A stretch of 32,000 bases of DNA from Escherichia sp. E4742 (lineage in GTDB: Bacteria; Pseudomonadota; Gammaproteobacteria; Enterobacterales; Enterobacteriaceae), in contig NZ_CP040443.1 of assembly GCF_005843885.1 (NCBI RefSeq), forward strand, positions 1,083,898 to 1,115,897. The letters are read 5' to 3'. Position numbers and translations under genes: made by a program. Positions 284-30,998 of the stretch are shown here, one piece after another. Each line of letters starts with the position of its first letter. Position 1 is the stretch's first letter. A model generated the notes under the pieces. The model ran no database searches and was not told where the DNA came from. It saw only the letters and a list, made by a program, of their open reading frames with translations.

Positions 284-544
284 TCATGCCGCCTCCTCCG
301 CTTTTCGCTTTTTGCCGGAAATACAACATGAAAAAAGCTGGTCATGCCGCTGACGACGCTGGCGCTCCTGCAAAAGAAAGTTGTCACAACTGGAGCACAG
401 CCCCAGCCCGCTCTCATGATTCACCTTCACCCACTGCCGGGTGTCCTGACCTGCAGCATCACCAAACCGCACACCGGAATAACCACACCCGACACACACT
501 GTCCGGCTGCGTCCTGTCAGGGATTTAAACGACAGCTTTACCAT
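284..544 (-). CDS. Hypothetical small protein, possibly translationally coupled to parA
   Basis: Its ATG (544-542) overlaps the parA stop (CAATGGTAAAG gives TGG TAA in one frame and ATG GTA in the other). The Cys/Arg-rich composition is odd and other ORFs overlap it in other frames, so support is weak. Confidence 0.2.
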   Translation of the reverse strand: MVKLSFKSLTGRSRTVCVGCGYSGVRFGDAAGQDTRQWVKVNHESGLGLCSSCDNFLLQERQRRQRHDQLFSCCISGKKRKAEEAA

Positions 545-1416
545 TGACGCATGCCTCCGTTTTCCAGCAGTTCATCAAAAAACTCACTCCACTCCGGCAA
601 CAGCTCACAGGCCAGGCTGTGCATGGTGACCAGCGCAGAATCACTGCGACGGGCAGACGCTTTTTCAAGACGGTGCACCGGCTGACCGGCTGCGTGTCCC
701 TGTTTGTAAATATTCAGGTCATAAATCTGTGTTGAAAGCAGGGTGACCGCGCCTTCCGGAAGCACTTTGCTGTAGCGACCGGAGTTAATAATGTCAGTCA
801 GCTCCGCCAGTGTTTGTCTGGCCAGCGCCGTATAATCCATGCAGTTAACCAGGGTGCGGACTTTCGGCAGGGGGATACCCAGTTCACGGTAGGGCAACAG
901 GTTTTCCATGACATTGACTGTGCCACGAATGAACTCACGCACATCCGGCAGAACCGGATTCACCATCCCCACCACAGACTCCGTGGCAGACAGCACAATC
1001 ATTTCCAGCATGACGGAACGCGCGCCCTGTGAATCCACCACAATGACGTCATAGCTCTGGAAAAGCGGATGCTGGAGCACATTACGCAGACGGAGGCGAC
1101 CATCCGGTGCATGAAGCATGGCCGTTTTCAGTTGTTCATGGGGGTCATTGGAGACTATCAGGTCAAGGCCGTCGATAGCCGTGCGGGAAATGATGTTGTC
1201 GGGATGACTGAGGTCAGCCGTGCGCATCAGTAATTCAAAAAGACCGGCCGGCGCTTCATACGTCAGCGGAAAGATATTGCTTGCCGTGGGCTGGGCATGG
1301 TCTCCGTCTATCAGCAGAGTACGGAGACCAGCATCCGCCAGAAAACCGGCAAGGTTAGCAGACTGGGTTGATTTTCCTTCGCCACCTTTGGTGGACACAA
1401 CGGGCAGAATGTTCAT
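538..1416 (-). CDS. ParA/Soj-family partition ATPase
   Basis: The N-terminus MNILPVVSTKGGEGKST carries the deviant Walker A motif KGGxxK[ST], followed by LLIDGD. I placed the start at ATG 1416, which has AAGGA about 9 nt upstream. The tracked ORF extends to 1434. Confidence 0.85.
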   Translation of the reverse strand: MNILPVVSTKGGEGKSTQSANLAGFLADAGLRTLLIDGDHAQPTASNIFPLTYEAPAGLFELLMRTADLSHPDNIISRTAIDGLDLIVSNDPHEQLKTAMLHAPDGRLRLRNVLQHPLFQSYDVIVVDSQGARSVMLEMIVLSATESVVGMVNPVLPDVREFIRGTVNVMENLLPYRELGIPLPKVRTLVNCMDYTALARQTLAELTDIINSGRYSKVLPEGAVTLLSTQIYDLNIYKQGHAAGQPVHRLEKASARRSDSALVTMHSLACELLPEWSEFFDELLENGGMRQW

Positions 1417-1517
1417 TACGCACATCCTTCTCATTTATAAGTTGAGACTGGATGCACATGAAAAAAAACTCTTTTGACTACTTGACGAACTCTTAATTAT
1501 CAGAAGCTCATTGCCAT

Positions 1518-1566
1518 GGGATTGAAAATCCCCGTGTCCTTGGTTCGATTCCGAGTCCGGGCACCA
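1518..1566 (+). tRNA. Truncated tRNA-Phe(GAA): 3' 49 nt only (anticodon loop to CCA), likely an att repeat and not a functional gene
   Basis: GGGATTGAAAATCCCCGTGTCCTTGGTTCGATTCCGAGTCCGGGCACCA matches the 3' part of enterobacterial pheV/pheU as I recall it. The sequence just upstream (cagaagctcattgccat) does not encode the acceptor or D arm. The match reaches about 52 nt if one mismatch is allowed. Confidence 0.8.
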
Positions 1567-1763: not shown

Positions 1764-3026
1764 ATGGCACTGACTGACGCAAAAATCCGGGCTGCAAAGC
1801 CCACTGACAAGGCTTATAAACTCACTGACGGGGCTGGCATGTTCCTGCTGGTACATCCTAATGGTTCCCGTTACTGGCGTCTCCGTTATCGTATTCTGGG
1901 TAAGGAGAAGACTCTGGCACTTGGGGTGTATCCAGAAGTTTCTCTCTCCGAAGCTCGTACAAAACGGGATGAGGCCCGAAAACTGATTTCGGAGGGGATT
2001 GACCCTTGCGAACAGAAAAGAGCTAAAAAAGTAGTCCCTGATTTACAACTCTCTTTTGAACATATTGCACGACGCTGGCATGCCAGTAATAAACAATGGG
2101 CACAATCACACAGCGATAAAGTACTCAAAAGCCTCGAGACACACGTTTTCCCCTTTATCGGCAACCGGGATATCACAACACTCAGTACCCCGGACCTGCT
2201 TATCCCTGTTCGTGCTGCAGAAGCTAAACAAATTTATGAAATCGCCAGTCGTCTGCAGCAAAGAATATCTGCTGTAATGCGTTATGCCGTACAGTCTGGC
2301 ATCATCAGATATAACCCGGCTCTGGATATGGCTGGTGCATTGACCACGGTAAAACGCCAGCATCGCCCTGCTCTGGATCTTTCACGCCTGCCTGAACTTC
2401 TGTCGCGTATTGACGGTTATAAAGGCCAGCCTGTCACCCGACTGGCAGTTATGCTGAATTTACTGGTTTTTATTCGTTCCAGTGAACTCAGATATGCCCG
2501 CTGGTCTGAAATTGATATTGACAATGCCATGTGGACTATTCCAGCCGAACGCGAACCTCTGCCAGGCGTAAAATACTCACACCGGGGCTCCAAGATGCGA
2601 ACACCACATCTTGTGCCACTCAGCCAACAGGCTGTAGCCATACTGACAGAACTTCAGACATGGGCAGGTGAAAATGGTCTGATATTTACGGGTGCACATG
2701 ACCCGCGTAAACCAATCAGTGAAAATACTGTAAATAAAGCCCTCAGGGTGATGGGGTATGACACAACCCGGGAAGTCTGTGGCCATGGATTCCGGGCGAT
2801 GGCGTGCAGTGCATTGATTGAATCAGGTTTGTGGTCCCGCGATGCTGTGGAACGTCAGATGAGCCATCAGGAGCGTAATGGTGTACGTGCTGCGTATATC
2901 CATAAAGCAGAACATCTGGAAGAACGGCGACTGATGCTACAGTGGTGGGCAGATTTTCTGGATGCGAACAGAGAACAATGTATCAGCCCGTTTGAATATG
3001 CAAAGATTAACAATCCATTAAAATAG
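1764..3026 (+). CDS. int: P4/CP4-57-type tyrosine integrase
   Basis: The N-terminus MALTDAKIRAAKP..DKAYKLTDG.GMFLLVHPNGSRYWRLRYR is the typical DUF4102 arm-binding domain. The C-terminus has HGFR (HxxR) and AAYIH (catalytic Tyr). TATAAT at 1696-1701 and a duplicated GGGTATA (1693-1699 and 1705-1711) lie upstream. Confidence 0.95.
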   Translation: MALTDAKIRAAKPTDKAYKLTDGAGMFLLVHPNGSRYWRLRYRILGKEKTLALGVYPEVSLSEARTKRDEARKLISEGIDPCEQKRAKKVVPDLQLSFEHIARRWHASNKQWAQSHSDKVLKSLETHVFPFIGNRDITTLSTPDLLIPVRAAEAKQIYEIASRLQQRISAVMRYAVQSGIIRYNPALDMAGALTTVKRQHRPALDLSRLPELLSRIDGYKGQPVTRLAVMLNLLVFIRSSELRYARWSEIDIDNAMWTIPAEREPLPGVKYSHRGSKMRTPHLVPLSQQAVAILTELQTWAGENGLIFTGAHDPRKPISENTVNKALRVMGYDTTREVCGHGFRAMACSALIESGLWSRDAVERQMSHQERNGVRAAYIHKAEHLEERRLMLQWWADFLDANREQCISPFEYAKINNPLK

Positions 3027-3122: not shown

Positions 3123-4727
3123 TTACTCCAGGGTTTCATTAAAGTTCTTTCGTAATACTTTGTAGTCAAACACGTTATGACTGGCATCAAAAACCACGGA
3201 TTTCCCCTGCCAGCGGGTAATCACCTCCTCCGGCGTTTTCGGTTGAGCCGGTCTGGTTACGCCCATCCATGCATTAATCAGATAATCATTATACGCAGTG
3301 GAAAAAACGCTGTTCACCGTCTGGCGATCGACATGCTCTCCCAGTGTCGGGCTGTACCAGATAAACATCGGAACATGATAAGCCTGCTGACTGGGTTTTA
3401 TTCCACCATGAAAATAGGCATGTTCTTTTGTCGGGTCATACTCCAGACCGTGATCTGAAAAATACATGACTGATGCCCGACGCGTTTCCAGCATGGCGAA
3501 AATCTGTCCCAACAAATTGTCGGTATAATAAATGGAATTATCGTAGCAGACTTCTTCTGTATCCAGCGGTTTAAACACGGCTTTATCTCTGGGCCAGTTA
3601 CTGCAGACTGGCTCATGGCTGCCCGTCAAATGCAGAACAATCAGTTTCCTGCTCCCCGGATTACTGTTCAGTGCTTCAGCCAGGTGTGGGAGCAGTAACT
3701 CATCATAGCCTCTGACATAAATTCTGTTTCTGGCCCGCATGGCGATACTGGCCACAGCCGTTCCGTTCTGTCGGAAAGCGGACTGCGCACTGAGCCACCA
3801 GGTATCGAACCCCGCCTGATTCGCCATGTTGATAATATTATCGGGGTAACGGCGAACATCATGATGCAGCACGGTATCAGCAGATAATGCCAGCGGTACC
3901 GCAAGAGCGGTATAAGGTGCCCCGCTGATTGCCTGAGTGAACAGTTTCAGTCGTGATTTCTGTTTCTGAAGCTCTGGTGTGGTTGGGCGCGAATACCCGT
4001 AAATGGACATGTTATCAGTCCTTGCAGATTCACCAATCACCAGAACAAATACGTCAGTGTTGTTATCCGTAATCATCAGATCGTAGTGAGGTATGGTATC
4101 AGCAATCGTCATTAATCTCTGATGCTCCTTTGCGGCCAGTGCAAAATAGTTCAGATTAAAGAAAGGGGTATATGTGGCAAATCGGGAAGCGACTATGTAA
4201 GGATCAACTTCATTTATTTGATACTGTTTCTTCAACGCAAACTGGAAGGAAGAATATAACGTTACTGTAATTAACAATAAAAATGTAATTACCGTGACCT
4301 TTTCCGATGGCAATGAGGACGTTTTATTTATTGCTGAACAGAAGAACAATAAAAAGAGGATAATAAATGCGATAACATAAACAACATACATCCTGAACAT
4401 TCTTATTACTTCATCAGGATCTGTCTGAAGGATACTGATTGCAAAACCATCATTAAATGTTGTGCCAAATGTACACCATGAATACAGGCTGATACTGATA
4501 TCTGCAGCAGTCAGTAATGTGAACGGGAAGGCAAGAATCAAACGCAACGTAATCGATTTCATTGCCTTAATAATAAGAAGTGCCAGGATAAAGAATAATA
4601 TCCGGTAAATCAGATGCGCTCCTGAGGATACAAGGAGATTAGAAAGGGTAAAGACAACCACTGATAACACGAGGCGCTTATCATTGCTAATCCGTGGCCA
4701 GTGTATGAATGGAAGATTAATTTTCAT
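3123..4727 (-). CDS. Sulfatase-family phosphoethanolamine transferase (EptA/OpgE/YhbX-like) inner-membrane protein
   Basis: The N-terminal half is multi-TM. The C-terminal half has motifs parallel to EptA: IGESARTDNMSIYGY (compare VGETSRAENFSLNGY), HLTGSHEP, YDNSIYYTD and SDHGLE. The ORF extends to 4796, but MKINLPF (ATG 4727) is the more plausible start. Confidence 0.85.
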   Translation of the reverse strand: MKINLPFIHWPRISNDKRLVLSVVVFTLSNLLVSSGAHLIYRILFFILALLIIKAMKSITLRLILAFPFTLLTAADISISLYSWCTFGTTFNDGFAISILQTDPDEVIRMFRMYVVYVIAFIILFLLFFCSAINKTSSLPSEKVTVITFLLLITVTLYSSFQFALKKQYQINEVDPYIVASRFATYTPFFNLNYFALAAKEHQRLMTIADTIPHYDLMITDNNTDVFVLVIGESARTDNMSIYGYSRPTTPELQKQKSRLKLFTQAISGAPYTALAVPLALSADTVLHHDVRRYPDNIINMANQAGFDTWWLSAQSAFRQNGTAVASIAMRARNRIYVRGYDELLLPHLAEALNSNPGSRKLIVLHLTGSHEPVCSNWPRDKAVFKPLDTEEVCYDNSIYYTDNLLGQIFAMLETRRASVMYFSDHGLEYDPTKEHAYFHGGIKPSQQAYHVPMFIWYSPTLGEHVDRQTVNSVFSTAYNDYLINAWMGVTRPAQPKTPEEVITRWQGKSVVFDASHNVFDYKVLRKNFNETLE

Positions 4728-4861
4728 AATAATTGAGTAAAAGCGATATTTCTGTCCGGCGCCGCTCGCTGAACATGCCGTGACAGGTAAATACATTTTT
4801 CTGAATAATCATAAAACAGGCATCATCCGCCGCCACAAATGTAACGGCGTAAACAGGAACG

Positions 4862-5146
4862 TCATGATGTTTTCTTTCGTGACAGAAGAGAACCGCATAT
4901 ACCACCCGCAATCACTATCATCAGGAATAACATCCCCAGGCCAACGATTACTCTTAATGCCGGATGAACCCGATCGGCGAGAAAAAATAACTCCATCCCG
5001 AAACCAATAACAAGCCAGGCCAGCGTCATTCCGACGAGCCCTTTTAACAACAATCTCACGATCCTCTCCTTCTGCGTTCTTAACGAAAATGCCTTACAAT
5101 AACAGCAGCCGGAGAAAGCAACGCTGGCTGCTGAACGGAATGACAT
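4862..5146 (-). CDS. Hypothetical small membrane protein (2 predicted TM helices); real start may be the internal Met at 5029
   Basis: The C-terminal 55 aa (MTLAWLVIGFGMELFF...GLGMLFLMIVIAGGICG) are hydrophobic. It is co-directional with the operon upstream. I recognise no family. Confidence 0.3.
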   Translation of the reverse strand: MSFRSAASVAFSGCCYCKAFSLRTQKERIVRLLLKGLVGMTLAWLVIGFGMELFFLADRVHPALRVIVGLGMLFLMIVIAGGICGSLLSRKKTS

Positions 5147-5198: not shown

Positions 5199-5465
5199 TT
5201 ACAGTTTATTCAGAATAAGGCAGGCGGCCTGGTTTAATGCAATAAACTCCTGCCAGCTGTACTGAGACTGATAATTCAGTAAATACTGGTCTTCAACCCG
5301 GCAAATCTGTGGGCGTTTATCATAAATTGCACACAAATGAGAATCAGTCTGATAGTGGCGGCAAATACCGTCACCACGATCCAGACATTGCGTTTCACCC
5401 GCCCTGTTGACATGACGACAACAGGCCCCACACTGGTTACAGGGAAATGGAGGGTGTAATTTCAT
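5199..5465 (-). CDS. YkgJ-family Cys-cluster (CxxCxxCC) zinc/iron-chelating domain protein
   Basis: It contains CNQCGACC plus further Cys residues (C..C...C) in 88 aa. Its ATG overlaps the stop of the upstream gene (ATGA at 5462-5465), which suggests translational coupling. Confidence 0.7.
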   Translation of the reverse strand: MKLHPPFPCNQCGACCRHVNRAGETQCLDRGDGICRHYQTDSHLCAIYDKRPQICRVEDQYLLNYQSQYSWQEFIALNQAACLILNKL

Positions 5466-7033
5466 CGCTTATTTAACCAGTCACGAACAGAAGCCACATT
5501 TCCTGACTCAAACGGCAACGCAATCCCTCGTCGGCTGACTTCTTCTCTCAGCAGAAGTCCGCGCTCTATCTCACTGTTTACGCTATCCAGATGAAGTGAA
5601 AAATGATTTAACGCGGCAGCATCAACAGAAAATTCCAGCGCAGTAAGTTCCACAAGATAGCGATCAAGTTCAGCATTGACTGCCTGAAAGTATTCCAGTG
5701 ACCGCCGGAATTTGTCCTTAAATTTGTCCAGAAATGCCCATACCCGCTGCATAACCTCGCTATATTCGAGATAATAATTCATCACCAGCCCGAGAATACC
5801 TGTCGTCAGCGCACCACAAAAGGCAGCAAGCTCTGAACCAAATGGAAAAATAAGGATCTGCGCCATCGCCTCATTTATCATCACCCCTCCGGCAACAGCC
5901 ACACCTGCTGCTATCAGTTTAGTGACCGCTTTGGCTAACTGCCCCGGCGATAATCCCTCCGGGTTAAATACCAGGACTTTAAAGGCCTGAACGAGATTGT
6001 TCCACATCTCCCTGATAAGCCGGACAATCATTCTTTCCGTCGTCAGGAATATATTTAACAACGTTGTGGTAATACCTGACAGTATCCCTCCGATGACACC
6101 ATCTTTAAAGGCAATTAAAAAAGAACTGAATTTTTCCTGTACTCGTTCCTGGCAGGCACGTAATGATGACGTTATTTCGGACAGGCATTTGCCGGCGCAG
6201 AATGAGTTCCGTTGCTGTCTGATAATATGCGGGATTCGTTCCCTCACTTCGAACCAGATCTCGGCAAGAATAAGCCCCAGCATCTGTCGCGTCCCCATAC
6301 GAAAACCGGAATTAAGTGAAGCACTGGCGACAGCAGTAGCAAACTTACTACTCAGGTAATAGCTCTGATTAATCGTGGCCTCGTATTTTTCCCGGGCATA
6401 TTTATCAGCCCTTTCCATACGCTCAGTATCTGCATCAGCTTTTTTTCTCAGACTTATCAGACGTTTCTTTTCTTTTTCTGTCAGTGTTGCCTGAGATTCA
6501 AGCTCTGCTATCTGCCTTAACGTATCTTCTCTATTTTTCTGCAATGTGCAAATAAACGCATCCATTGAGTCTGCTTTCTTTGATTTATTGAGCGACTCAT
6601 GTGTGAATGCCAGATTTGAAGCGTCATTTGCCAGTTCTGCACCATCCCGTTCAGCAAGAATTCTCCCCGGATCATCATGAATTTCTTTAGCGGAAATAAT
6701 ATGATCCAGATTTTTTTTATCGTCTGAAGCAAACACTTCGCCTGTATATGCATCAGTAAGAGTCCCTGCCTGATGTGCACGCTTTCCTTTCCGGTTCGTC
6801 GCGATGTAGTTCTCATGGCTGTGGTAATGATGAGAATCATAGTCGCCACGACCTTCATACCGCTGTCGCTCAGCCTCCGTGGCATAAATGCCATTACGCA
6901 CATTATGGATAGTGTCAACATCACCACCCTTACGATCATTTAACAACAGAAAATCCAGCCCGAATGATGTAACCAGGCTCTTCACCATGGTCTGATGTAA
7001 CTCTTCTGTCCAGTCAAATTTTTCCACATTCAT
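5462..7033 (-). CDS. Membrane-anchored HNH-like nuclease: N-terminal HNH, coiled coil, three C-terminal hydrophobic helices; family not recognised
   Basis: Residues about 105-155 read KKNLDHIISAKEIHDD...NDASNLAFTHESLNKSKK, a Cys-less D-H...N...N-x-x-K pattern like the Cas9-type HNH. Residues 165-225 are charged heptad-like sequence. Hydrophobic segments lie at aa 312-331, 372-396 and 401-421. Confidence 0.6.
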   Translation of the reverse strand: MNVEKFDWTEELHQTMVKSLVTSFGLDFLLLNDRKGGDVDTIHNVRNGIYATEAERQRYEGRGDYDSHHYHSHENYIATNRKGKRAHQAGTLTDAYTGEVFASDDKKNLDHIISAKEIHDDPGRILAERDGAELANDASNLAFTHESLNKSKKADSMDAFICTLQKNREDTLRQIAELESQATLTEKEKKRLISLRKKADADTERMERADKYAREKYEATINQSYYLSSKFATAVASASLNSGFRMGTRQMLGLILAEIWFEVRERIPHIIRQQRNSFCAGKCLSEITSSLRACQERVQEKFSSFLIAFKDGVIGGILSGITTTLLNIFLTTERMIVRLIREMWNNLVQAFKVLVFNPEGLSPGQLAKAVTKLIAAGVAVAGGVMINEAMAQILIFPFGSELAAFCGALTTGILGLVMNYYLEYSEVMQRVWAFLDKFKDKFRRSLEYFQAVNAELDRYLVELTALEFSVDAAALNHFSLHLDSVNSEIERGLLLREEVSRRGIALPFESGNVASVRDWLNKR

Positions 7034-7079
7034 GTTATTTCACTTCTTGTAAAGCCGGGCTTTAACGCCCGGTAAATCA

Positions 7080-8159
7080 TTAACTCCGGGATGAAAAATC
7101 ATCAAATTTCACAACCGAACAGGCCAGTACATCATCCAGCTCTTCCTTATTAATAACATTCATTCCATTATCATCCTTTTCCATTTCAATAACGTTATCT
7201 TTTATCACCGCCTCACCATTTTCCTGTTTCCGCGGTTTAAACAGTGGCGTTGTAATAATATCCGTCATAATAGCGGCCAGTGAATATCCATGGTCAATAA
7301 GCATAATGATTTCATCTGATACACTAATATCCTGTTGTTCTGTAATAACAGAATGCATGGATTTAAGCGGATCAAAATAGTGTTTAATAAATACAGCATG
7401 CATTCTGTTCAGTGCAGTGAGAATTTCATCAACGTACTGATTAACTTTTGCAAAATGTTCCCGGGCCAGATTCATTTGCTTAACTGCCCGTTCAACTTTG
7501 CAGGCACACTGATGGGCATTTTCAAGAGCTTTCGTCGCATGTCTGTCGTAAGCCCAGCCCGCAATGGCAATCAACGGTGCAGCCACTGCAGTGCCTAATA
7601 CCATTGCGCCACCAGCCATTCCCATGCCCCCTGCAGCCAGTGAGCCCCCACCAATTGCCGCCATCGTCGCGTTATAAGCCGCGGCACCAGAAAGCGCTGC
7701 AATGGGTGTACCTGTGGAAGCCGCAGCAAATGCCATCACTCCGCTATACACAGCAAAACCCGCAGCAGCCCCGGAAACTCCGGCAGCAACGACCGTACTG
7801 AGATATTCTGTCGCTGAAATGGCCAGGTTCTGAATCTTATTGATGTTATGTTGCGGGACACTCAGTTTCAGGTCTTTATTGCCCTCTTTTTCCAGACGCG
7901 CCAGGAGCTCAGCAGCAATCCTGTCGAACTCACTGAAATCTTTACCAATCTCAAGCTCTTTATTTCCGAGCGTTGTTAATTTTGATGATGTCTGAGCTTC
8001 AGCCTGCTCAAATTTTTCTTTATGCTCCTCGTAACGCTCTTTTGCTTTTTCGAGGATATCCTCTGCTTCTGACTTTTTTTGATATCCATCGTAAGCTTTT
8101 TTTCCGCCGAATGCCGCAGCGCCGGCAGCCACACCCAAAATAATGAAAGGTAACGCCAT
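7080..8159 (-). CDS. Gly/Ala-zipper membrane protein with coiled-coil and C-terminal soluble domain; family not recognised
   Basis: AGGAGG lies 7 nt upstream of the ATG. The N-terminal hydrophobic helix is MALPFIILGVAAGAAAFGG. Residues 25-100 are a charged helical region. Residues 120-203 form a continuous G/A-rich hydrophobic block (GVSGAAAGFAVYSG...GGSLAAGGMGMAGGAMVLG...). Confidence 0.6.
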   Translation of the reverse strand: MALPFIILGVAAGAAAFGGKKAYDGYQKKSEAEDILEKAKERYEEHKEKFEQAEAQTSSKLTTLGNKELEIGKDFSEFDRIAAELLARLEKEGNKDLKLSVPQHNINKIQNLAISATEYLSTVVAAGVSGAAAGFAVYSGVMAFAAASTGTPIAALSGAAAYNATMAAIGGGSLAAGGMGMAGGAMVLGTAVAAPLIAIAGWAYDRHATKALENAHQCACKVERAVKQMNLAREHFAKVNQYVDEILTALNRMHAVFIKHYFDPLKSMHSVITEQQDISVSDEIIMLIDHGYSLAAIMTDIITTPLFKPRKQENGEAVIKDNVIEMEKDDNGMNVINKEELDDVLACSVVKFDDFSSRS

Positions 8160-8207
8160 TCTTTTCCTCCTGTACAGGTTGCTTTATCATCAATCAACTG
8201 AAGTATT

Positions 8208-9104
8208 TCAGGAAACATTCTCAGCAGTGAGGTATTTTCCTAACATTGTTAACACGGCTTCTTTCAGCCATACTGGTTCAATAATTTCAACATTCGGTAG
8301 CCAGTATAAAATCAACGGGATAATTTGATTTTTATGTGCAGCCTTGCATGACAGCGTAATGCCATTGTCATGTCTGTGTAGCAATTGCTGGTAAGGAAGT
8401 AAGTCCCGTCGCAAAAAATAATGGGCGATATTACTGTGAATGAACAACACTACATTAAATGTTTTGTCGCTCACCCACGGGTCACATGACTCACTTACTA
8501 GTGACTGTATTTCCTCACTCTTTGCAAACTTTTCTTTTTTTATATCCAGCCATTTTATTTTAGCTAATGAAAACGACTTTAACTTGTTCTCTTCAGTAGC
8601 CAGCAAATACCATATACTTCTCTGATTAGTTAATTTATAAGGATGAACGATTCTGGTCTTACCGGCATATGCAATCTGACAAACATTACTGTTGCAGATC
8701 GCTTTTTCAAGAACATCAAGATATTTTCTTAAATCATCCCTGATGGTGTGCTCAGGGTTATGAAACTGAACACGAATATGCTCTTCGGTTGCCCTGTTTT
8801 CTAATTTCTGCCAGAAACTTTCATTCCGTTCAGGAAAAATCGCATCAGTATCCAGTAACCTGGCCAGAGATTTGTGCAGTGATTCTTTGCTCTGGTTATC
8901 TGCTCTTGCTGAAATAAGCCGGTATTTTCCATCGCCACAGGATTCAATAAAGGGAGAAAGCATATTCAGATCACGATATGCTGTTCGCTCAGTGATGTTG
9001 TATTTTTTCATCAAATTATGGCGACTGACCACGCCATAATTCTGTAATTCAACAAGAATATCAATCAAACGCTCCGCTGAGCGATTTTTCGTTGAGTCAG
9101 CCAT
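8208..9104 (-). CDS. HTH + WYL-domain transcriptional regulator (CapW/BrxR/PafBC-like architecture)
   Basis: The N-terminal DeoR/HTH_11-like segment is RLIDILVELQNYGVVSRHNLMKKYNITERTAYRDLNML. The central segment HPYKLTNQRSIWYLLATEENKLKSFSLAKI contains a literal WYL motif. It is the first gene of a co-directional cluster. Confidence 0.85.
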   Translation of the reverse strand: MADSTKNRSAERLIDILVELQNYGVVSRHNLMKKYNITERTAYRDLNMLSPFIESCGDGKYRLISARADNQSKESLHKSLARLLDTDAIFPERNESFWQKLENRATEEHIRVQFHNPEHTIRDDLRKYLDVLEKAICNSNVCQIAYAGKTRIVHPYKLTNQRSIWYLLATEENKLKSFSLAKIKWLDIKKEKFAKSEEIQSLVSESCDPWVSDKTFNVVLFIHSNIAHYFLRRDLLPYQQLLHRHDNGITLSCKAAHKNQIIPLILYWLPNVEIIEPVWLKEAVLTMLGKYLTAENVS

Positions 9105-9157
9105 AAATCACTGCACCTGTAGTATTACTCTTGTGTAAGTGAATTATATAAATATTC

Positions 9158-9226
9158 CTGACATCATTTGTCAGTTCTACAAAACTACGCCCTCCGGTAA
9201 CAGGTTTTTATTTGATTATAATCAAA
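9158..9226. promoter_or_regulatory. Two palindromes upstream of the WYL regulator gene (candidate operators/promoter)
   Basis: CTGACA-tcatt-TGTCAG lies at 9158-9174. A perfect 16-bp palindrome TTTGATTATAATCAAA lies at 9211-9226 and contains TATAAT in both orientations. Another TATAAT (minus sense) lies at 9143-9148. Confidence 0.4.
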
Positions 9227-9524: not shown

Positions 9525-10262
9525 TCAGAAGTTATACGTTGCGCCTAACATAAACTCGTTACTTTTGACATCAACAGAGGATTTATATTTAGCACCATCC
9601 TCATCTTTATAAGTCAGAGTGGAATCCCCTGCATCCAGATACCGGTAGCTGAGGTCAAGGCTGAAATCCTGCGTCACATCGTATTTAACACCGACACCAA
9701 GGCTCCATGCCAGGTTGTTTTCGTATTTTGACGCTGAAGCTGAATAAGCTTCACTTCCTGCCGGGCTGTTATCGGTATATATGTACGAAGTTTTATGATG
9801 AACCCGTGCATAACCCAAGCCAGCAGATATCCATGGCGTGAATGCACTGTTGTTTCTGAAATCATAATACGCATTCAGCATCAGCGTGTTTACACTGAGC
9901 TTGTTCTGTGCGTCATCAAACTCGGCGCCACCGGCACTTTCCCAATAACTCAGACGATATTTTGATTCAGCATTACCACGGCCATAAAACTCCACTTCAA
10001 TACGTACCGGCACATTGTAGTGCTGATAAAAATCGTATCCCACCGCAAGGCCTGTGCCAAAAACCGTATCACTTTTGTCACCGCCTTTATATTTATCTGC
10101 CCATGCCCCTTCACCATCAACGAAACGTTGGTCTGAAAGTGACATAACAGAAGCACCGGCTTTACCGGTCACATAAAAGCCTGTTTTATCCTCATCAGCC
10201 AGAGCCTGGGCCGAAAACATGCCTGCCATTGCAAGCGCTGAAACCGCAATAACCTTTTTCAT
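9525..10262 (-). CDS. Tia/Hek/Hra/PagN-like small beta-barrel outer-membrane adhesin/invasin family protein
   Basis: It has a signal peptide (MKKVIAVSALAMAGMFSAQALA), alternating beta-strand pattern, aromatic girdle residues and a C-terminal ...GATYNF ending in Phe. GGAG lies 9 nt upstream of ATG 10262. The ORF extends to 10271. Confidence 0.8.
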   Translation of the reverse strand: MKKVIAVSALAMAGMFSAQALADEDKTGFYVTGKAGASVMSLSDQRFVDGEGAWADKYKGGDKSDTVFGTGLAVGYDFYQHYNVPVRIEVEFYGRGNAESKYRLSYWESAGGAEFDDAQNKLSVNTLMLNAYYDFRNNSAFTPWISAGLGYARVHHKTSYIYTDNSPAGSEAYSASASKYENNLAWSLGVGVKYDVTQDFSLDLSYRYLDAGDSTLTYKDEDGAKYKSSVDVKSNEFMLGATYNF

Positions 10263-10350
10263 TTCAATCATCTCCGTTGGTTCTTACCCTACCCGACAAA
10301 TAGGGTTGCCTATTTTAAAACCATGCAAAAGATATGGTAAAATGGTTACA

Positions 10351-10658: not shown

Positions 10659-11724
10659 TTCCATGAAAATACGCACGCGGGGAACACTCGTGAATTACAT
10701 AAACTGCATCAGAGTGAGCCGGTTTATCCCCGCTGACGCGGGGAACACTTCGTGGCGTTCTCCGGGCGGCTGGTATATTGCGGTTTATCCCCGCTGGCGC
10801 GGGGAACATTCATTCACAAACTGACCGGAACCGGAGCGGAACGGTTTATCCCCGCTGGCGCGGGGAACATCAGTTGAATCAGACTAATGGAAGCCATAGC
10901 TGCGGTTTATCCCCGCTGGCGCGGGGAACATGTCCGGAAAAGTCGGCTGGGTTACGTAAATTGCGGTTTATCCCCGCTGGCGCGGGGAACATATATCAGA
11001 CAACACAGAACGCATTGATCCTGCCGGTTTATCCCCGCTGGCGCGGGGAACATGATCAACGTCGCGCTGTGATAGTTTGCTGTAACGGTTTATCCCCGCT
11101 GGCGCGGGGAACATGGCAATTTGCAGCCAACGCTTACCATTTCTGCCGGTTTATCCCCGCTGGCGCGGGGAACATATCAACTGACTCTATACTACAAAAG
11201 AGATAAGCGGTTTATCCCCGCTGGCGCGGGGAACATGCGTCCTGAAGGTATTTTCACGTCAGGGAAAACGGTTTATCCCCGCTGGCGCGGGGAACATCAG
11301 CAATGGTACCGGGTGGAAAGATGCTCTTTCGGTTTATCCCCGCTGGCGCGGGGAACATCAGTCCGCTCTGACCAATGCTGGACAGAATGCCGGTTTATCC
11401 CCGCTGGCGCGGGGAACATTCCAGGCTGTTCTCCCCACTCACGGGCGATTTCGGTTTATCCCCGCTGGCGCGGGGAACATCAGCCATGAACATCAGCTGT
11501 TCAGTGGTCTGCCGGTTTATCCCCGCTGGCGCGGGGAACATTTCTGATTGCCTTTAGTTTTTTGGCGTAATCTCGGTTTATCCCCGCTGGCGCGGGGAAC
11601 ATCTGAAGGGAAATGGCTCAGGTGTCCTGAATAACGGTTTATCCCCGCTGGCGCGGGGAACATGCCATCCGGCACTCCACCGGTTTACCGGTGAACGGTT
11701 TATCCCCGCTGGCGCGGGGAACAT
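10659..11724 (-). CRISPR. Type I-E CRISPR array: 17 full 29-nt repeats plus 1 degenerate trailer repeat, 17 unique 32-nt spacers, 61-nt period
   Basis: The plus-strand repeat is CGGTTTATCCCCGCTGGCGCGGGGAACAT, the reverse complement of ATGTTCCCCGCGCCAGCGGGGATAAACCG. Repeats start at 10720 and then every 61 nt up to 11696. The degenerate copy (10659-10687) keeps only GCGGGGAACAC. The leader and cas2 lie on the 11725+ side, so transcription runs on the minus strand. Confidence 0.98.
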
Positions 11725-11820: not shown

Positions 11821-13030
<1,210 letters not shown>

Positions 13031-13034
<4 letters not shown>

Positions 13035-13681
13035 GCCTCTGCTCCGGGTTTGATAAGCATCAGACCACAGCCGAACGCCCGGCTTTTGCCATACCCCTGG
13101 CTCAGACGTTGCAGAAATAATCCGGGATCGGTGACCGTAAGCATCCCCGTATAATCCACGCAACTGAACTGGATCAGTTGCCGGGCGTTTTCCCGCCGGA
13201 GTTGCTGTTGTCGGTAGGCATCAACCGAAGTATCCAGCAGTGTAAAACCGCTTCTTTCCCCCTGCGCTGCCAGCCAGTCCAGCGCAGCCTGTTGTTGATG
13301 CAACCAGACATCAATTCCTTCCGCCTGCCCCCTCACCTGCCGTTTCGCCTCCATCAGCAGATCGTGGCGCTTGCCCGCTTTACAGATGGTTGGATTCGCC
13401 CGCAGGTTGAAGCAAAGGGATTGTCCGGTACGCAGCTCCGGCGCAAATGGTCGGCATTCGATGGTGAAAATTTCACTTTCCGCCGGACATTCCTGCGACA
13501 GGACAAAAAAGCGAAACGCGCCCTGGAGTTCTTCCCGACGATAAAGAAATTGCCTTTCTTTTCCGCCAGGGAAAAGATCCCACAGCCACTGATGCATCAC
13601 ATATTCACCGCGATCCACCAGATGCAGCAACTGCGCAGGCGAAAGCTGGCCGGTATGTAAGGTTATTCTTGAGAGGTACAT
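13031..13681 (-). CDS. cas6e: Cas6e (CasE/Cse3) crRNA endoribonuclease
   Basis: The position is right, the start is MYLSRITL... (compare MYLSKVII in K-12 CasE), and the C-terminal glycine-rich loop is GKSRAFGCGLMLI. I placed the start at 13681. The tracked ORF extends to 13819. Confidence 0.9.
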
Positions 13682-14409
13682 GGTTCCTCCTTGCTGAGCC
13701 ACGGCCCCTGATTGATGGTGCGCTCCCCAAACAGCCATTGCTGACGATTTAAAGGAACATCCCGGCGGCGTAATATTTTGCTCACGACCAGGCCATCGTG
13801 CTCCCCTTCCCACCAGCATTCATCCTGAAGTTTCGGGAGTGAGACTTTCAGTTTGTGGAAATGATCCTGATACTGTTTGTATGCGTTACGTAAGACATGA
13901 GACGCGTTGCCTTCGAACAGTAACGGCGCAAGAGGTAATGCCAGCGGATGACTTTTTCGCCCCAGATAAAGCGGAAAAACCGGATGGCGTAAACCTTCCT
14001 GCAACTGCTCGAGGCTGTATGGCGCATCGGTAGTTTTTGCTACAGCCACCATCCACCAGGCATCGGTGTAGTAGTCGCGCCGGGAGATAATCGCGCTCAG
14101 AAGAGCAGGATCGCTCAACTCTTCGCGACGGCTGAAATAACGCGCTTTACGCACCTCTTTTGGCATCTGGATCGTGTGATAATCCCGTGCCCAGCGCGGG
14201 TTACGGCTGGCGCAAACCACCAGTGAATAGTGGCGATTAAACGCGTTTAAGCGTTCGGTATCATCACGCCGGATCCCTACCCCGGCAGCCAGCAGCCCCA
14301 GCAATGCTGAGCGCGAAGGCAGTTCATGGGTATGACGCACTTCGCCGGGGGCATCGACGCCCCAGGATGCCATCGGCCCATGAAGCTGAAAAATCAGATA
14401 TTGGCTCAT
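13663..14409 (-). CDS. cas5e: Cas5e (CasD)
   Basis: MSQYLIFQLHGPMASWG...PSRSALLGLLAAGVGIRRDD parallels the K-12 CasD N-terminus. Confidence 0.92.
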   Translation of the reverse strand: MSQYLIFQLHGPMASWGVDAPGEVRHTHELPSRSALLGLLAAGVGIRRDDTERLNAFNRHYSLVVCASRNPRWARDYHTIQMPKEVRKARYFSRREELSDPALLSAIISRRDYYTDAWWMVAVAKTTDAPYSLEQLQEGLRHPVFPLYLGRKSHPLALPLAPLLFEGNASHVLRNAYKQYQDHFHKLKVSLPKLQDECWWEGEHDGLVVSKILRRRDVPLNRQQWLFGERTINQGPWLSKEEPCTSQE

Positions 14410-14419
14410 AAGCCGCCCC

Positions 14420-15475
14420 TTACGCGCAGATAAAGTCCAGCACGTCCTTCATGCTTCCCTGTTTGTTCATCACGTCAAAACTTGCGTAATCGGTCTTCTG
14501 TTCGTAGACCGTATTCATGTTTTCGCGAAGAGTTGTAATACGCTGCACCGCCACCTCTAACTGACGGGTGCCATTAATGGGTTCATAGAAAGCTGCCGCC
14601 AGAGAACGCGGTTGATCGGTGCCTTTTTCTGCCAGCGCCCAGGAGGCATAAGCCCGGCTGGCAAAGCTGTTTTGTTTTCCGGTTGGAGAGACTTTGAGCG
14701 CGGCTTCCGTAAAGGCGCGTATGGTCTGATTAGCTAACGCTTCGTCACCGCCGAGGTTTTCTACCAGCAGATCTTTATCAATGCAGATATAGGTGTAGAA
14801 GAGCGCAGAACCGAATCCGGTTTCTCCCAGATGCCCGGCACCGGCATCTTCAGAAGCCTGGCGTAAATCATCAACGGCGGTGAAAAAATCATCTTCGACA
14901 ATCGTTTCACTGACACCAAACGCGTGCGCGACCTGGCAGGCGGCTTCAACATTAAACTCAGGTTTATTCGCCAGCATACGACCAAACATGGCGATATCTA
15001 CCGCCATGCGATCTTTACGTAACAAAGAGAGATCTTCCTCTTTTGGCGCGCGCTTTTCTTCTGCCAGTTGATGGGCCAGCGCTTTTACGGCGTCAAATTC
15101 TGCCGGGCTGATATGGACTAACTGTTCAGTTTCGGCGTTACTGAGCGGATCTTTTGGTTTTTTGTCGTTTTTAGCTTTTCCAAGATAATCCGCAATTTTT
15201 GCCGCCCATTCGATGGCTTTTTTCTCTTCGATTCCTTTCTCAATCAGGATAGTTGCCGCCTCACGCGCAATACGCCCACTGCGAATACCAATATGGCCCG
15301 CCAGTGCCTGTTCAAAAAGTGCAGAAGTGCGCCACGCACGCTTCAGACTTTGCGAGGAAACACGCAGTCGTGTTGCTCCACCCAGCACCACAGTTTTCGG
15401 CGCACCGGTATCATCACGGTTAAGGTTGGCAGCAGGGTAAGCGGTTAACAAATGAAGCTGAATAAATGTCGTCAT
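14420..15475 (-). CDS. cas7e: Cas7e (CasC/Cse4) Cascade backbone subunit
   Basis: It shows ...LNRDD...RLRVSSQSLKRAWR, the conserved Cas7e N-terminal motifs. It is 351 aa. Confidence 0.93.
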   Translation of the reverse strand: MTTFIQLHLLTAYPAANLNRDDTGAPKTVVLGGATRLRVSSQSLKRAWRTSALFEQALAGHIGIRSGRIAREAATILIEKGIEEKKAIEWAAKIADYLGKAKNDKKPKDPLSNAETEQLVHISPAEFDAVKALAHQLAEEKRAPKEEDLSLLRKDRMAVDIAMFGRMLANKPEFNVEAACQVAHAFGVSETIVEDDFFTAVDDLRQASEDAGAGHLGETGFGSALFYTYICIDKDLLVENLGGDEALANQTIRAFTEAALKVSPTGKQNSFASRAYASWALAEKGTDQPRSLAAAFYEPINGTRQLEVAVQRITTLRENMNTVYEQKTDYASFDVMNKQGSMKDVLDFICA

Positions 15476-15486
15476 GAGATAGTCCT

Positions 15487-16026
15487 TTATTGATTTTGTT
15501 CGTTATCGGCGTCGCCAGCCTGGTAATATTCCAGCGCCCAGCGGATACGGATAAATTCGGTTGGCCGCTGCTGTCGGCGGTGATGATTGAGCAGGTCGTC
15601 GCTCTCCTGGCACCAGCGGAAAATATCTTCTGCCAAAGAGATAAGATTGACGGAACCATTTAATAATTTGACCGCGCGACGTAACTGACGTAGTAAATCA
15701 TCCGGCGTTTTTACTGCCGACAGACGAGTAAAACGTCCCTCAGACATTACTGCCGCCAGCTGCGCGGCAAAAGGCTGCCGTTCATCAATAGCTTTTACAT
15801 TGGCGCTAACTGCGGCGACCAGCGCCAGTGCGGTAAAACGCCACTCTTGTGCTTCAATTTTCCACAAAGTGTGGGTCTGCATCAGCAGAGAACGAAACCC
15901 TTCTGACAAGCAAACATCATTAACCGTTGTGCTACGCCGCAGACTGGCACGATTGCCGCGTTTAGCCTGCAACTCTTCGTGCCATTTACGCAGCGTGGCT
16001 TTGTGCTCCTCTTTTACAATGCTCAT
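15487..16026 (-). CDS. cse2: Cse2 (CasB) small Cascade subunit
   Basis: A 179-aa helical, Arg-rich protein between cse1 and cas7e, overlapping cse1 by 4 nt. Confidence 0.88.
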   Translation of the reverse strand: MSIVKEEHKATLRKWHEELQAKRGNRASLRRSTTVNDVCLSEGFRSLLMQTHTLWKIEAQEWRFTALALVAAVSANVKAIDERQPFAAQLAAVMSEGRFTRLSAVKTPDDLLRQLRRAVKLLNGSVNLISLAEDIFRWCQESDDLLNHHRRQQRPTEFIRIRWALEYYQAGDADNEQNQ

Positions 16027-17585
16027 TCAGCAGCCTCCTGCTTTTTCTCCCTGGCGGCTTTAGCATTTTGCTTCTCCGCCGATGTTGTAAAATATTTCTT
16101 GCGCGCGGTCATGACGCGTTTCAAATCAACGGGCTCATATGGACTGGTGAATACACGCTCGTCAAAATCCTGACGCGCGAATAACCAAATTTCCTTTTGC
16201 CATTTGCCGAGTAATTCATCCGCATCCTGACCTTCTTCAATTCTGCGCACTAACCTCAGGAAGCGATGCTGAGTTTTGTTCCAGAAGTCGATATCCACAA
16301 AACTAAAATCCCCCCGTGCGCCTTTTGGATCGGAGAACCATGCTTCTTTCAATGCACTCCGTAACAGACTCAGAATTCGTGAAGCCGTTTGCGCAGCCAG
16401 CCGCAGTTTCGGTATCTGGCCTTCTTTTTTATTGAGCAGCAGCGGGAAATGGTGTTCGTACCAGCAGCGCGCTTTCATGTTGTCGAAATCATAGCCAAAT
16501 CCCCACAGGCCCACTTTTGCCTGTTTCAGACTGCTGGCATTGAAGAGTTTCACCACCAAAGCGGGAAGTTCCGTATTGTTTTCTGATTTACCCGTTTCGA
16601 TAAGGCCTAACCAGTCGCGCCAGATTAAACCGCCCGGTTGTGGTTTTACGGAGTAAAACTCGCCTCCCTCTTTAAGGGGTACACGGTAAGGCGTTAAGGG
16701 ATGCTGCCACATGGCATAATTCGCACCGTAATTTTTTGTCGTCATCAGGCTCAGGAGCGCGTCGCTCTGCTCACCGCAAATATCGCAGTTACCGACTTGA
16801 GTGGTATTAAAATCAATACGAATACGGCGCGGCATTCCCCAGTACGCCTGGAGTTTATTGACCTGATCATAGGTTACCACCGCACCGGCCAGTTCGCTGG
16901 TTCGCGTCGGGCCAAGCCAGGGGAAAACCAGATCATCAAATTTTTTGGGTAACGGTAAGTCGGATTCATCCTGCGGCATCACATTGAGCCACAGTTTGCG
17001 CCACAAGGGCGTTTGTTGATTGCCCTGATATTCCTGTAATTCAATCAGAGTGGTCATCGGCCCACCGCCGCGCAAACCGGTGCGGTAGCCTTTGCCACCT
17101 GACGGCGCATTTAACTGTAGGGAGAACAGAGATAACGCGGAACAATGAGGGCATATATGTTCAGTCACGCCACGTTTAATAAAGTGGTCTTTATTAAACT
17201 TCGTTGTTTGAGCGCCGGGAATCTCAGGCAGTAGCGAAGCGACCGGAATTTTATCTCCGGTGAGCGCCTCGAAATCCTGCATAAATGAAGGGGAATCTGG
17301 CCCAAACTGGAAAGCGTGCTCTAAGGACAGCAATGCTTCCCGTAGCTTTTCAACTTCCAGTCCGTCTTCCCAGATATCATCCCAACGACGGTGATCTTTT
17401 GGCGCAAAGCTGGTTTGTAGTAGCCCCAGCAAAAACTGCCATGCCGCCCCCTGGAGATCTGCCCGCGGCGCAGCGATATCGACAACATTTTCATCCGCCA
17501 GATCGACTGGCGCCAGTTTGCCTGTCGTTCCGTCTTTAAGACGAACGGGCAACCACGGGGTTGTCAGAAGTGAAAACGAGTTCAT
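16023..17585 (-). CDS. cse1: Cse1 (CasA/Cas8e) large Cascade subunit
   Basis: About 520 aa, immediately downstream of cas3 and upstream of cse2. The start MNSFSLLTTPWLPVR has GAGAGG upstream (ATG 17585). The tracked ORF extends to 17654. Confidence 0.9.
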   Translation of the reverse strand: MNSFSLLTTPWLPVRLKDGTTGKLAPVDLADENVVDIAAPRADLQGAAWQFLLGLLQTSFAPKDHRRWDDIWEDGLEVEKLREALLSLEHAFQFGPDSPSFMQDFEALTGDKIPVASLLPEIPGAQTTKFNKDHFIKRGVTEHICPHCSALSLFSLQLNAPSGGKGYRTGLRGGGPMTTLIELQEYQGNQQTPLWRKLWLNVMPQDESDLPLPKKFDDLVFPWLGPTRTSELAGAVVTYDQVNKLQAYWGMPRRIRIDFNTTQVGNCDICGEQSDALLSLMTTKNYGANYAMWQHPLTPYRVPLKEGGEFYSVKPQPGGLIWRDWLGLIETGKSENNTELPALVVKLFNASSLKQAKVGLWGFGYDFDNMKARCWYEHHFPLLLNKKEGQIPKLRLAAQTASRILSLLRSALKEAWFSDPKGARGDFSFVDIDFWNKTQHRFLRLVRRIEEGQDADELLGKWQKEIWLFARQDFDERVFTSPYEPVDLKRVMTARKKYFTTSAEKQNAKAAREKKQEAAE

Positions 17586-17682
17586 ACGCATCCTCTCGTA
17601 AAAAAGACCATCCCTGGCCGGTTGTCCATCCTTCCATCTTTTTCTGTGTATCAACTATTCAGAGAGTCCTGTCGCAGGCATC
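17586..17682 (-). promoter_or_regulatory. cas3-cse1 intergenic region, probable Cascade operon promoter by analogy with E. coli Pcas
   Basis: It is the only sizeable gap (97 nt) inside the cas cluster. I identified no specific -10/-35 elements with confidence. Confidence 0.3.
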
Positions 17683-21152: not shown

Positions 21153-21191
21153 AACATTAACTCACTGAAATAATATACATATATGACGGTC

Positions 21192-28083: not shown

Positions 28084-28137
28084 CGGCAGATTCAGTGTTG
28101 CTGTATTAAATCATGATTAACAGTTACGGAAAGAACA

Positions 28138-28969: not shown

Positions 28970-29009
28970 AACTTCTTCTCATAATCATTTAATCGTGGAA
29001 ATAGTTCAA

Positions 29010-29300: not shown

Positions 29301-29347
29301 AAAAACAAATCCTGTAGCACCTGCATCATTTTTGTGACATCCATTGA

Positions 29348-29757: not shown

Positions 29758-29770
29758 TCAGCACACGACC

Positions 29771-30986: not shown

Positions 30987-30998
30987 ACCTGCTCCTGT

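Follow-up and report, generated by a model that had tools for sequence, protein, structure and literature searches.

A three-gene core with two membrane-type proteins and a frequent WYL regulator in an Escherichia genomic island: a candidate mobile defense cassette

Within a 32,000-nucleotide (nt) stretch of DNA from Escherichia sp. E4742 (contig NZ_CP040443.1, positions 1,083,898 to 1,115,897 of the forward strand; the whole stretch is here termed the window), a run of four genes lies on the minus strand between window positions 5199 and 9104. In the direction of reading these encode a regulator with winged helix-turn-helix (wHTH), WYL and WCX domains, a 359-amino acid (aa) protein termed P2, a 523-aa protein termed P3, and an 88-aa cysteine-rich protein of the YkgJ type (Table 1). 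The genes are separated by 48 nt (regulator/P2) and 46 nt (P2/P3), and the sequence ATGA is common to the stop codon of P3 and the start of the YkgJ-type gene, such that the small protein is translationally coupled to P3. AGGAGG, a strong ribosome-binding site, precedes P2, and the gap between P2 and P3 contains a GC-rich hairpin that may serve as an attenuator or partial terminator, with P2 then more abundant than P3. A trough in GC content covers the genes, with values of 0.37-0.47 as opposed to 0.50-0.56 nearby. The analysis presented here shows a cassette that is real, widespread and mobile, and whose most likely role is that of a new module against phages or foreign DNA.

Loci with relatives of P3 were surveyed with one genome per species, which gave 80 loci. 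P2 adjoins P3 in 79 of these and a YkgJ-type gene does so in 78. The set is found in the Gamma-, Beta- and Alphaproteobacteria, and it is rearranged to P3-YkgJ-P2 in Firmicutes and Synergistota. With an iterated hidden Markov model, the WYL regulator gene was located directly upstream and on the same strand in about 47 of the 80 loci, and nearby on the opposite strand in about 10; it is absent from the rest. The core of the cassette is P2-P3-YkgJ, and the WYL gene is a frequent yet dispensable fourth member. One lineage, which is successful on plasmids (IncF, in Klebsiella/Raoultella) and is also found in Pluralibacter and Buttiauxella, has a WYL gene that lacks approximately the first 176 codons together with the promoter, with P2-P3-YkgJ intact. 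In one plasmid an IS3 element lies beside the truncated WYL gene. In Vibrio loci (L085-L093) the regulator and P2 are separated by an additional 130-aa gene, whose product shows only a faint Pfam match to TerB and no PADLOC or PHROG match.

The flanks of the cassette are almost never alike. When the 432 nearest open reading frames (ORFs) are clustered at 50% identity, 394 clusters result, and no conserved fifth gene or neighbor is found among them. Thus the cassette is self-contained and moves as a unit. In E. coli it is present in 374-488 of 5426 complete genomes (7-9%), always on the chromosome in that collection, where it is found at the beginning of tRNA-Sec or tRNA-Phe islands that have an integrase gene and also type I restriction-modification (RM) genes or type I-E CRISPR-Cas; the window displays the CRISPR-Cas arrangement. 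In V. cholerae the cassette lies, in several combinations, between a DUF6361/helicase set (Azaca-like), BrxR-Wadjet, bacteriophage exclusion (BREX), SIR2 and type I RM genes. It adjoins UvrD, helicase+MZB and NERD-helicase genes in Pseudomonas, and in V. parahaemolyticus it is found at the edge of an integrative and conjugative element (ICE), beside tra genes. In addition, 69 plasmids have the cassette, mostly Klebsiella IncF plasmids, and 23 of them are conjugative.

Adjacent homologs of P2 and P3, with 29-33% identity, are also present in four lytic jumbo Aeromonas phages of approximately 260 kb (LAh10, D3, D6 and D9). The phage copies are without the Cys protein and without the regulator. 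Directly after the pair, in the place occupied by YkgJ elsewhere, the phages have a gene for a protein that lacks Cys and has a signal peptide.

P2 has an N-terminal hydrophobic helix (residues 1-20 by hydropathy), long coiled coils, and a central hydrophobic block of the Gly/Ala-zipper type, with 28 Ala and 16 Gly in the 90 residues from 117 to 206. An alignment of 24 sequences that are 52-92% identical overall shows most columns between A132 and W202 to be invariant, while the flanking coiled coils diverge. The invariance is strongest at residues 145-189 (AAASTGTPIAALSGAAAYNATMAAIGGGSLAAGG.GMAGGAMVLG). AlphaFold models P2 as long helices, with a predicted local distance difference test (pLDDT) score below 40 in the Gly/Ala block. 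Fold matches are all non-significant; generic coiled coils are matched, and along with them the pore toxins ClyA and SmhB (E 0.25-0.65, with TM scores of 0.13-0.21). P2 has at least 1317 homologs at E≤0.001. Neither P2 nor P3 matched a Pfam or NCBIfam family, and the names they carry in RefSeq, 'chemotaxis protein' and 'cobalamin adenosyltransferase', are not backed by any profile match. The possibility that P2 and P3 are paralogs, in the style of a bipartite pore toxin, was considered and rejected, as the hhalign probability is 1.7%.

P3 consists of a conserved, enzyme-like N-domain, a coiled coil, three hydrophobic helices (residues 312-332, 366-391 and 399-420 by hydropathy) and a helical C-terminal domain. 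The membrane region displays an invariant P397-F398-G399 turn, and F396 is kept in at least 90% of sequences. Invariant positions of the N-domain are GGDVDT.HN.R, Y70-H71-x-H73, D110-H111, H119-x-D121, N136, N140, N149 and K152. In the AlphaFold model, pLDDT exceeds 90 for the N-domain (residues ~38-230), including a strand at 107-111, a second strand at 141-145 and a helix at 146-152; D110-H111 end the first strand, N140 precedes the second and N149 is in the helix. This D-H...N...N order on a strand-strand-helix model is plausible as the layout of a His-Me finger. A Foldseek search gave weak matches to HNHc, EndoVII and GmrSD_C (viral proteins) and to Cas9, at E 0.4-1.4, with a probability of 0.41 for Cas9, and one unnamed viral protein was matched at E 0.035 with a probability of 0.99. 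At the level of motifs, hhalign pairs LDHI with VEHI, and SNL..T..lNkSK with GNL.LL...N. The domain is clearly enzymatic and of a metal type, and a nuclease, for which statistical support is lacking, is the best guess as to its nature. As P3 has no signal peptide, its N-domain probably faces the cytoplasm. The N-domain family comprises 595 clusters at 50% identity, and since nearly all members are 510-590 aa in length, the domain is essentially confined to the P3 architecture. SLATT_6, a conflict effector domain with two transmembrane helices, is weakly matched in 3 of 27 P3 homologs, with a best E of 0.008.

The 88-aa protein belongs to the CxxCxxCC family PF03692 (25.8 bits, with a cut-off of 23). 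Its eight cysteines (C9, C12, C15, C16, C35, C45, C55 and C82) are invariant in 82 sequences. No PADLOC model matches this YkgJ-type protein.

The regulator shows Pfam matches to HTH_DeoR (E 2.8e-4) and HTH_11 (E 4.9e-4) at residues 12-50, to WYL (E 1.7e-8) at 128-184 and to WCX (E 1.5e-7) at 216-291. The domain set wHTH, WYL and WCX is complete, and the protein is thus a class A WYL regulator; the literal W-Y-L is found in 'SIWYLLATE'. PADLOC WYL models match it at 4e-22, and it is the one cassette protein with a clear phage family in PHROGs. Entries for DriD are its sole sequence relatives in the PDB, and these are weak (E 0.016-0.07).

These results may be set against the initial annotation of this DNA, which was made from the letters and an ORF list. 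Its four co-directional, tightly packed genes, spaced by 48 and 46 nt and then overlapping at ATGA, are all as described, and so are the leading HTH+WYL regulator with a literal WYL motif, the 359-aa protein with N-terminal helix, coiled coil and Gly/Ala block, the 88-aa CxxCxxCC protein and the low-GC patch. For the 523-aa protein the three hydrophobic helices and coiled coil hold, but its 'Cys-less HNH' motif is seen at the motif level without statistical support. A WYL-led operon of four genes is present; however, what is conserved as a unit is P2-P3-YkgJ, three genes, with WYL facultative. Homologs of the 359-aa and 523-aa proteins do co-occur, as had been asked, but the defense neighbors expected with them are found in some loci and are missing from several.

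An inverted repeat, CTGACA-N5-TGTCAG, is the putative operator of the regulator gene. A perfect TATAAT follows it 9 nt downstream and probably marks the promoter from which all four genes are transcribed. CTGACA, the left arm of the operator, resembles a -35 sequence but is 20 nt from TATAAT, and the promoter was not listed in a consensus scan, there being no canonical -35 at 16-18 nt. Of 47 related loci, 24 have the core GACA-N5-TGTC upstream of WYL, where 0.013 occurrences are expected per 390 nt, or about 0.6 over the 47 loci. Citrobacter, Pectobacterium, Serratia and further relatives have repeats of the CTGACA type at the equivalent position; the arms are kept and the spacers differ from locus to locus. 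Relatives in Pseudomonas, Comamonadaceae and Stenotrophomonas have the version GCGACA-N5-TGTCGC, and the exact CGACA-N5-TGTCG is present in relatives of the Pseudomonas and Comamonadaceae types. A 16-bp perfect palindrome with a TATAAT inside it, TTTGATTATAATCAAA, is located some 110 nt upstream of the regulator, at the upper end of the region described in the initial annotation, and was also considered as the operator. Related loci do not share it, and CTGACA-N5-TGTCAG is preferred; the palindrome may be a second promoter or binding site.

The operator resembles the sites of two WYL regulators. DdaA, the activator of the Acinetobacter DNA-damage response, has the box CGWCA-N5-TGWCG, and the site of DriD from Caulobacter is CGAC-N7-GTCG. 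Compared by sequence only, the window operator differs from the DdaA box by one mismatch per half-site. Before its capture by the Moraxellaceae, DdaA was a putative regulator of neighboring genes of unknown function (PMC12392091), and cassettes such as that of the window are candidates for these genes. Cassettes are present in Moraxellaceae themselves, with operators close to the DdaA box of the host: GTGACA-CAACC-TGTCAG in Acinetobacter gyllenbergii (L064) and AGGACA-CAACC-TGTCGC in a metagenome-assembled Moraxellaceae genome (L038). From these sites, the Moraxellaceae cassettes might be cross-regulated by the global DNA-damage activator of their host.

No validated defense system in PADLOC-DB 2.0.0 or in the literature searched matches the cassette. 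Nor did the searched literature yield a functional report on its genes, whether under YkgJ/CxxCxxCC, PDC names, the RefSeq misnomers or in the DefensePredictor tables; the sole mention of the three genes is in a list from a genome-wide association study. The strict three-gene core, the dispensable WYL gene, the non-conserved flanks, the phage P2 and P3 genes and the DdaA-like operator are new observations.

PADLOC does match two of its candidate families: PDC-M09A with P2 (E 3.6e-23, 80 bits) and PDC-M40B with P3 (E 9.3e-42, 141 bits, the best stretch being residues 195-424). The companion models PDC-M09B and PDC-M40A are matched by no protein of the window, so that neither two-component system, PDC-M09 or PDC-M40, is complete there, and no paper in the searched literature mentions PDC-M09 or PDC-M40. 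Firmicutes homologs match PDC-M40B over its full length, phage homologs also match PDC models, and one P3-like representative matches the C-terminus of PDC-M09B. Closer relatives reach 273-289 bits on the PDC models, and the P2 and P3 of the window are thus distant from them. The branch nearest to PDC-M40B (289 bits; loci L101-L104) pairs a P3-like protein with a 333-aa coiled-coil protein that has a C-terminal membrane anchor and is non-homologous to P2; this branch is without YkgJ and without WYL. The window cassette therefore appears, from its sequence relationships, to be a separate branch of a superfamily composed of a P3-like membrane enzyme and a membrane coiled-coil partner, with PDC-M09 and PDC-M40 as other, candidate-flagged branches. 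The initial annotation had assigned the operon to no named system, which stands for validated systems but has to be qualified by these matches to families of untested candidates.

That annotation had also placed the regulator with CapW and BrxR. The likeness to these is one of arrangement: the first gene of a defense-type operon encodes a WYL regulator, and the promoter of that gene has an inverted repeat (PMC9122601). The BrxR domains WHD_BrxR and BrxR_CTD (PF26109 and PF26107) are not matched in the window regulator at E≤0.1, and they are present in neighboring V. cholerae BrxR genes. The PDB matches of the regulator include neither BrxR nor CapW, and no gene of BREX or of the cyclic oligonucleotide-based anti-phage signaling system (CBASS) belongs to the cassette. 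Taken with PDB relatives that are DriD only and an operator that resembles the DdaA box, the absence of BrxR-specific domains speaks against the CapW/BrxR assignment and leaves the logic of a repressor gate unproven. DdaA and DriD share with the regulator the domain order wHTH-WYL-WCX, and their sites resemble its putative operator; the sequence similarity is weak, however, and the window regulator is local and cassette-encoded, in contrast to the global regulons of DdaA and DriD.

A parallel of another kind is found in SNIPE (PD-lambda-1), a GIY-YIG nuclease of the inner membrane by which phage DNA is cut as it is injected, and whose tether prevents self-damage (PMC13190303). The likeness is one of logic only: a nuclease-type domain on the cytoplasmic side of the inner membrane, with self and non-self distinguished by location, which would also suit superinfection exclusion by phages. 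SNIPE consists of one polypeptide, in which an N-terminal transmembrane helix is combined with DUF4041 and a C-terminal GIY-YIG, whereas P3 has an N-terminal domain that is at best His-Me-like and a three-helix anchor. The cassette moreover has two further conserved partners and a regulator, and there is no homology between the two. No Pfam or PADLOC match to DUF4041, GIY-YIG or PD-Lambda-1 is present in the window proteins. GmrSD/DUF1524 and HNH proteins resemble P3 in the motif order D-H...N...N and in the predicted strand-strand-helix, but P3 is without a DUF262 partner, and its domain of about 190 residues has extra invariant His/Asp clusters that are absent from simple HNH. Olokun (adaptin-like OloA with PD-(D/E)xK OloB) was considered because of the 'chemotaxis protein' annotation and was rejected; PADLOC detects no OloA or OloB, and the architecture differs.

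The reading favored here, possible but short of probable, is that the cassette is a self-contained, mobile and inducible defense module in which a membrane-tethered nuclease complex cuts the DNA of phages or conjugative elements as it enters. On the model of DdaA, DriD, CapW and BrxR, the GACA-N5-TGTC repeat would be bound by the regulator, which would respond to single-stranded DNA (ssDNA) that results from DNA damage or from a foreign-DNA attack, and would raise the expression of the operon. P2 and P3 would assemble in the inner membrane, where the nuclease-like domain of P3 would cut incoming phage or conjugative DNA, the tether keeping this domain off the chromosome as in SNIPE. The eight-cysteine protein would be a zinc or iron-sulfur subunit that stabilizes or gates P3. 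Here we infer nuclease activity, complex formation, the polarity of the regulator and a phage phenotype alike. Cleavage of DNA at the membrane is favored because of the phage P2 and P3, the regulator-free cassettes and the precedent of SNIPE. A more far-reaching form of this proposal, which we regard as unlikely as a whole, is that P2-P3-YkgJ represents a new class of inner-membrane immune complex common to bacteria and jumbo phages, in which the metal-cluster subunit gates a tethered nuclease on a Gly-zipper platform, foreign DNA is destroyed at entry, and the WYL regulator is drawn from the local pool that gave DdaA.

It should be noted that several results weigh against the proposal of a tethered nuclease. 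Pfam GmrSD_C is matched by P3 only at E 0.097 (13 bits, with a cut-off of 23) and by 4 of 27 P3 homologs with a best E of 0.013, and hhalign of P3 with five GmrSD_C domains from neighboring genes gives a probability of 0.06%. No PDB match is found at E≤0.001, the best for P3 being 0.83, and a PDB profile search returned nothing relevant. The membrane topology of P2 and P3 is a prediction from hydropathy, and AlphaFold confidence is low in every hydrophobic part of both proteins. From its sequence the WYL protein may be either an activator or a repressor. With regard to context, a Providencia locus lies among housekeeping genes and several loci are without any defense neighbor. Pooled Pfam and PADLOC searches of 139 immediate neighbors gave GmrSD-type, PDDEXK_4/HEC-06, HsdR and integrase or other mobile-element genes, together with many metabolic genes; the immediate neighbors are often housekeeping genes, and the association with defense islands is qualitative, without an enrichment figure. 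Finally, pores and channels are a more usual setting for a nearly invariant Gly-zipper than passive anchors are.

This last point is also the best argument for abortive infection, put forward in the initial annotation, which is somewhat unlikely but is the explanation that comes closest to the tethered nuclease. Here the P2 zipper and the P3 helices would form pores and collapse the membrane potential, the P3 N-domain would degrade DNA, and the cell would die before phage release, with the WYL regulator keeping the set off. GxxxG-type zippers are typical of channel-forming toxins. The weak matches of P2 to ClyA and SmhB, alpha-pore-forming toxins, and of P3 homologs to SLATT_6 point in the same direction, as does the control of toxic systems such as CBASS by WYL regulators (PMC9122588). 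However, no fold match is significant, and the regulator seems to resemble DriD and DdaA, which are activators, more than CapW and BrxR, which are repressors. Obligate suicide is disfavored because lytic jumbo phages, which would gain nothing from it, keep P2 and P3, as would suit superinfection exclusion. Obligate toxicity is likewise disfavored because cassettes stay intact without regulator or promoter, many loci having intact effector genes and a WYL gene that is absent or truncated. Thus of the inducible suicide or defense set proposed in the initial annotation, the mobile and defense-rich context is retained, and the phage genes and regulator-free cassettes argue against the obligately toxic part.

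The operator bears more directly on a second explanation, in which the cassette is a mobile stress-tolerance trait with no role in immunity. An activator of the DdaA/DriD type would drive membrane proteins that act on the host by division arrest, envelope remodeling, or the processing or export of damaged DNA. The operator core fits the DdaA box, with the exact CGACA-N5-TGTCG in relatives, and DriD is the only PDB relative of the regulator. DdaA activates AciT, a membrane-acting division inhibitor (PMC13010146), and DriD activates cell-division genes. The adjacent unknown genes that DdaA putatively regulated before its capture (PMC12392091), and the loci among housekeeping genes, are also in keeping with such a role. 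It is nevertheless quite unlikely in view of the patchy, strain-specific spread (the 7-9% of E. coli genomes), the carriage on plasmids, ICEs and phages, the recurrence beside BREX, Wadjet, CRISPR-Cas and RM genes, and the kinship to the defense-candidate families of PADLOC; a membrane-tethered nuclease-like domain is in addition ill-suited to chromosome repair. Competition between elements, whereby ICEs, plasmids and islands would use the cassette as an entry-exclusion or anti-plasmid device that attacks conjugative ssDNA at the membrane with the ssDNA-sensing WYL protein as the trigger, is improbable, for most loci are chromosomal and far from transfer genes and the jumbo-phage copies point to phage-phage conflict, even though the cassette is found on an ICE beside tra genes and on 69 plasmids (23 conjugative), ssDNA is a signal for WYL regulators, the anti-plasmid system DdmDE is under the control of another WYL protein (PMC13622015), and DNA uptake in natural transformation activates DdaA (PMC13010146).

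P2 and P3 have no Pfam family and no solved relative, and yet the P3 family amounts to about 600 clusters at 50% identity. The cassette reaches 7-9% of complete E. coli genomes, Klebsiella plasmids of the resistance type, the defense islands of V. cholerae, and jumbo phages. Should it restrict phages or plasmids as the tethered-nuclease proposal holds, it would be a second, unrelated case of membrane 'defense by location', would give the widespread YkgJ cysteine-cluster fold its first role in immunity, and could be relevant to phage therapy and to the spread of plasmids in Enterobacterales. The link of the operator to DdaA and DriD suggests a possible route by which a global DNA-damage regulator may evolve from the regulator of a mobile cassette.

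Table 1. Coordinates of the cassette, its sequence features and the surrounding genes; positions are those of the window unless a survey locus (L number) is named.
Feature	Position	Strand	Basis or remark
wHTH-WYL-WCX regulator	8208..9104	-	298 aa; ORF and Pfam
P2	7080..8159	-	359 aa; ORF, hydropathy, alignment
Gly/Ala-zipper block of P2 (residues 117-206)	7542..7811	-	alignment, composition
P3	5462..7033	-	523 aa; ORF, hydropathy, alignment
P3 N-domain (residues 38-230), putative His-Me (HNH-like) metal-dependent nuclease	6344..6922	-	alignment, AlphaFold
P3 membrane region (residues 312-420)	5774..6100	-	three hydrophobic helices; alignment
YkgJ-type CxxCxxCC protein	5199..5465	-	88 aa; Pfam PF03692
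GC-rich hairpin CCGGGC-GTTAAA-GCCCGG followed by CTTT	7055..7072	-	P2-P3 gap; read from sequence
Putative operator CTGACA-N5-TGTCAG (inverted repeat)	9158..9174	-	centered 62 nt upstream of regulator start codon; overlaps -35 region
-10 hexamer TATAAT, perfect	9143..9148	-	9 nt downstream of operator; read from sequence
Perfect palindrome TTTGATTATAATCAAA	9211-9226		
ParA-like ATPase gene	538-1434	-	
tRNA-Phe remnant, 3' 50 nt	1517-1566	+	attachment (att)-type remnant
Island integrase gene	1764-3026		
Phosphoethanolamine-transferase-like gene	3123-4796		
Small, very hydrophobic ORF	4862-5059	-	139 nt 3' of YkgJ-type gene
OmpW-like porin gene	9525-10271		
CRISPR array, 61-nt periodicity, and full cas3-cse1-cse2-cas7-cas5-cas6e-cas1-cas2	10780-11541 and 11909-20388		
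PerC-like, IbrB-like and IbrA-like trio	20844-23047	-	
SF1 helicase	23530-25926	-	798 aa
Type VI secretion pieces	26719-31979	-	TsiV immunity gene at 29771-30511
Truncated WYL genes	L098 6385-6815, L099 2420-2812, L006 476-868, L008 3790-3935		
Vibrio 130-aa gene (L085-L093)	about 9606-9998 / 8605-8997		
P2 and P3 homologs of phage LAh10	L097 3979-6575		
P3-like gene and coiled-coil partner nearest to PDC-M40B	L101 1877-4617		

With regard to the surroundings in the window, the initial annotation had placed the genes in a tRNA island with CRISPR-Cas. Type I-E CRISPR-Cas does adjoin the cassette, past the OmpW-like porin gene, but the tRNA is represented only by the 3' 50 nt of tRNA-Phe without the 5' half; no complete tRNA gene was found in the window by ARAGORN or Rfam, and no Rfam family of any kind. 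The remnant lies directly before the island integrase gene and matches exactly the junction of the corresponding tRNA-Phe island of E. coli. The ParA-like ATPase gene is on its other side, and the remnant suggests an att repeat between two tandem elements.

The small hydrophobic ORF downstream of the YkgJ-type gene corresponds to a 65-aa protein in E. coli RefSeq. It precedes the phosphoethanolamine-transferase-like gene and is outside the conserved cassette of other genera. Beyond the cas genes, the IbrA-like member of the PerC-like, IbrB-like and IbrA-like trio has PAPS-reductase and DUF3440 domains. IbrB/IbrA-type gene pairs are often found on islands, where their role is unsettled. The SF1 helicase (AAA_11/AAA_12) has a C-terminal DUF2726 and is a defense-like single gene in a second low-GC patch. 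The type VI secretion pieces at the end of the window include a VasL/ImpA-type protein, at least one TsiV immunity gene and a VRR-NUC effector-like gene.

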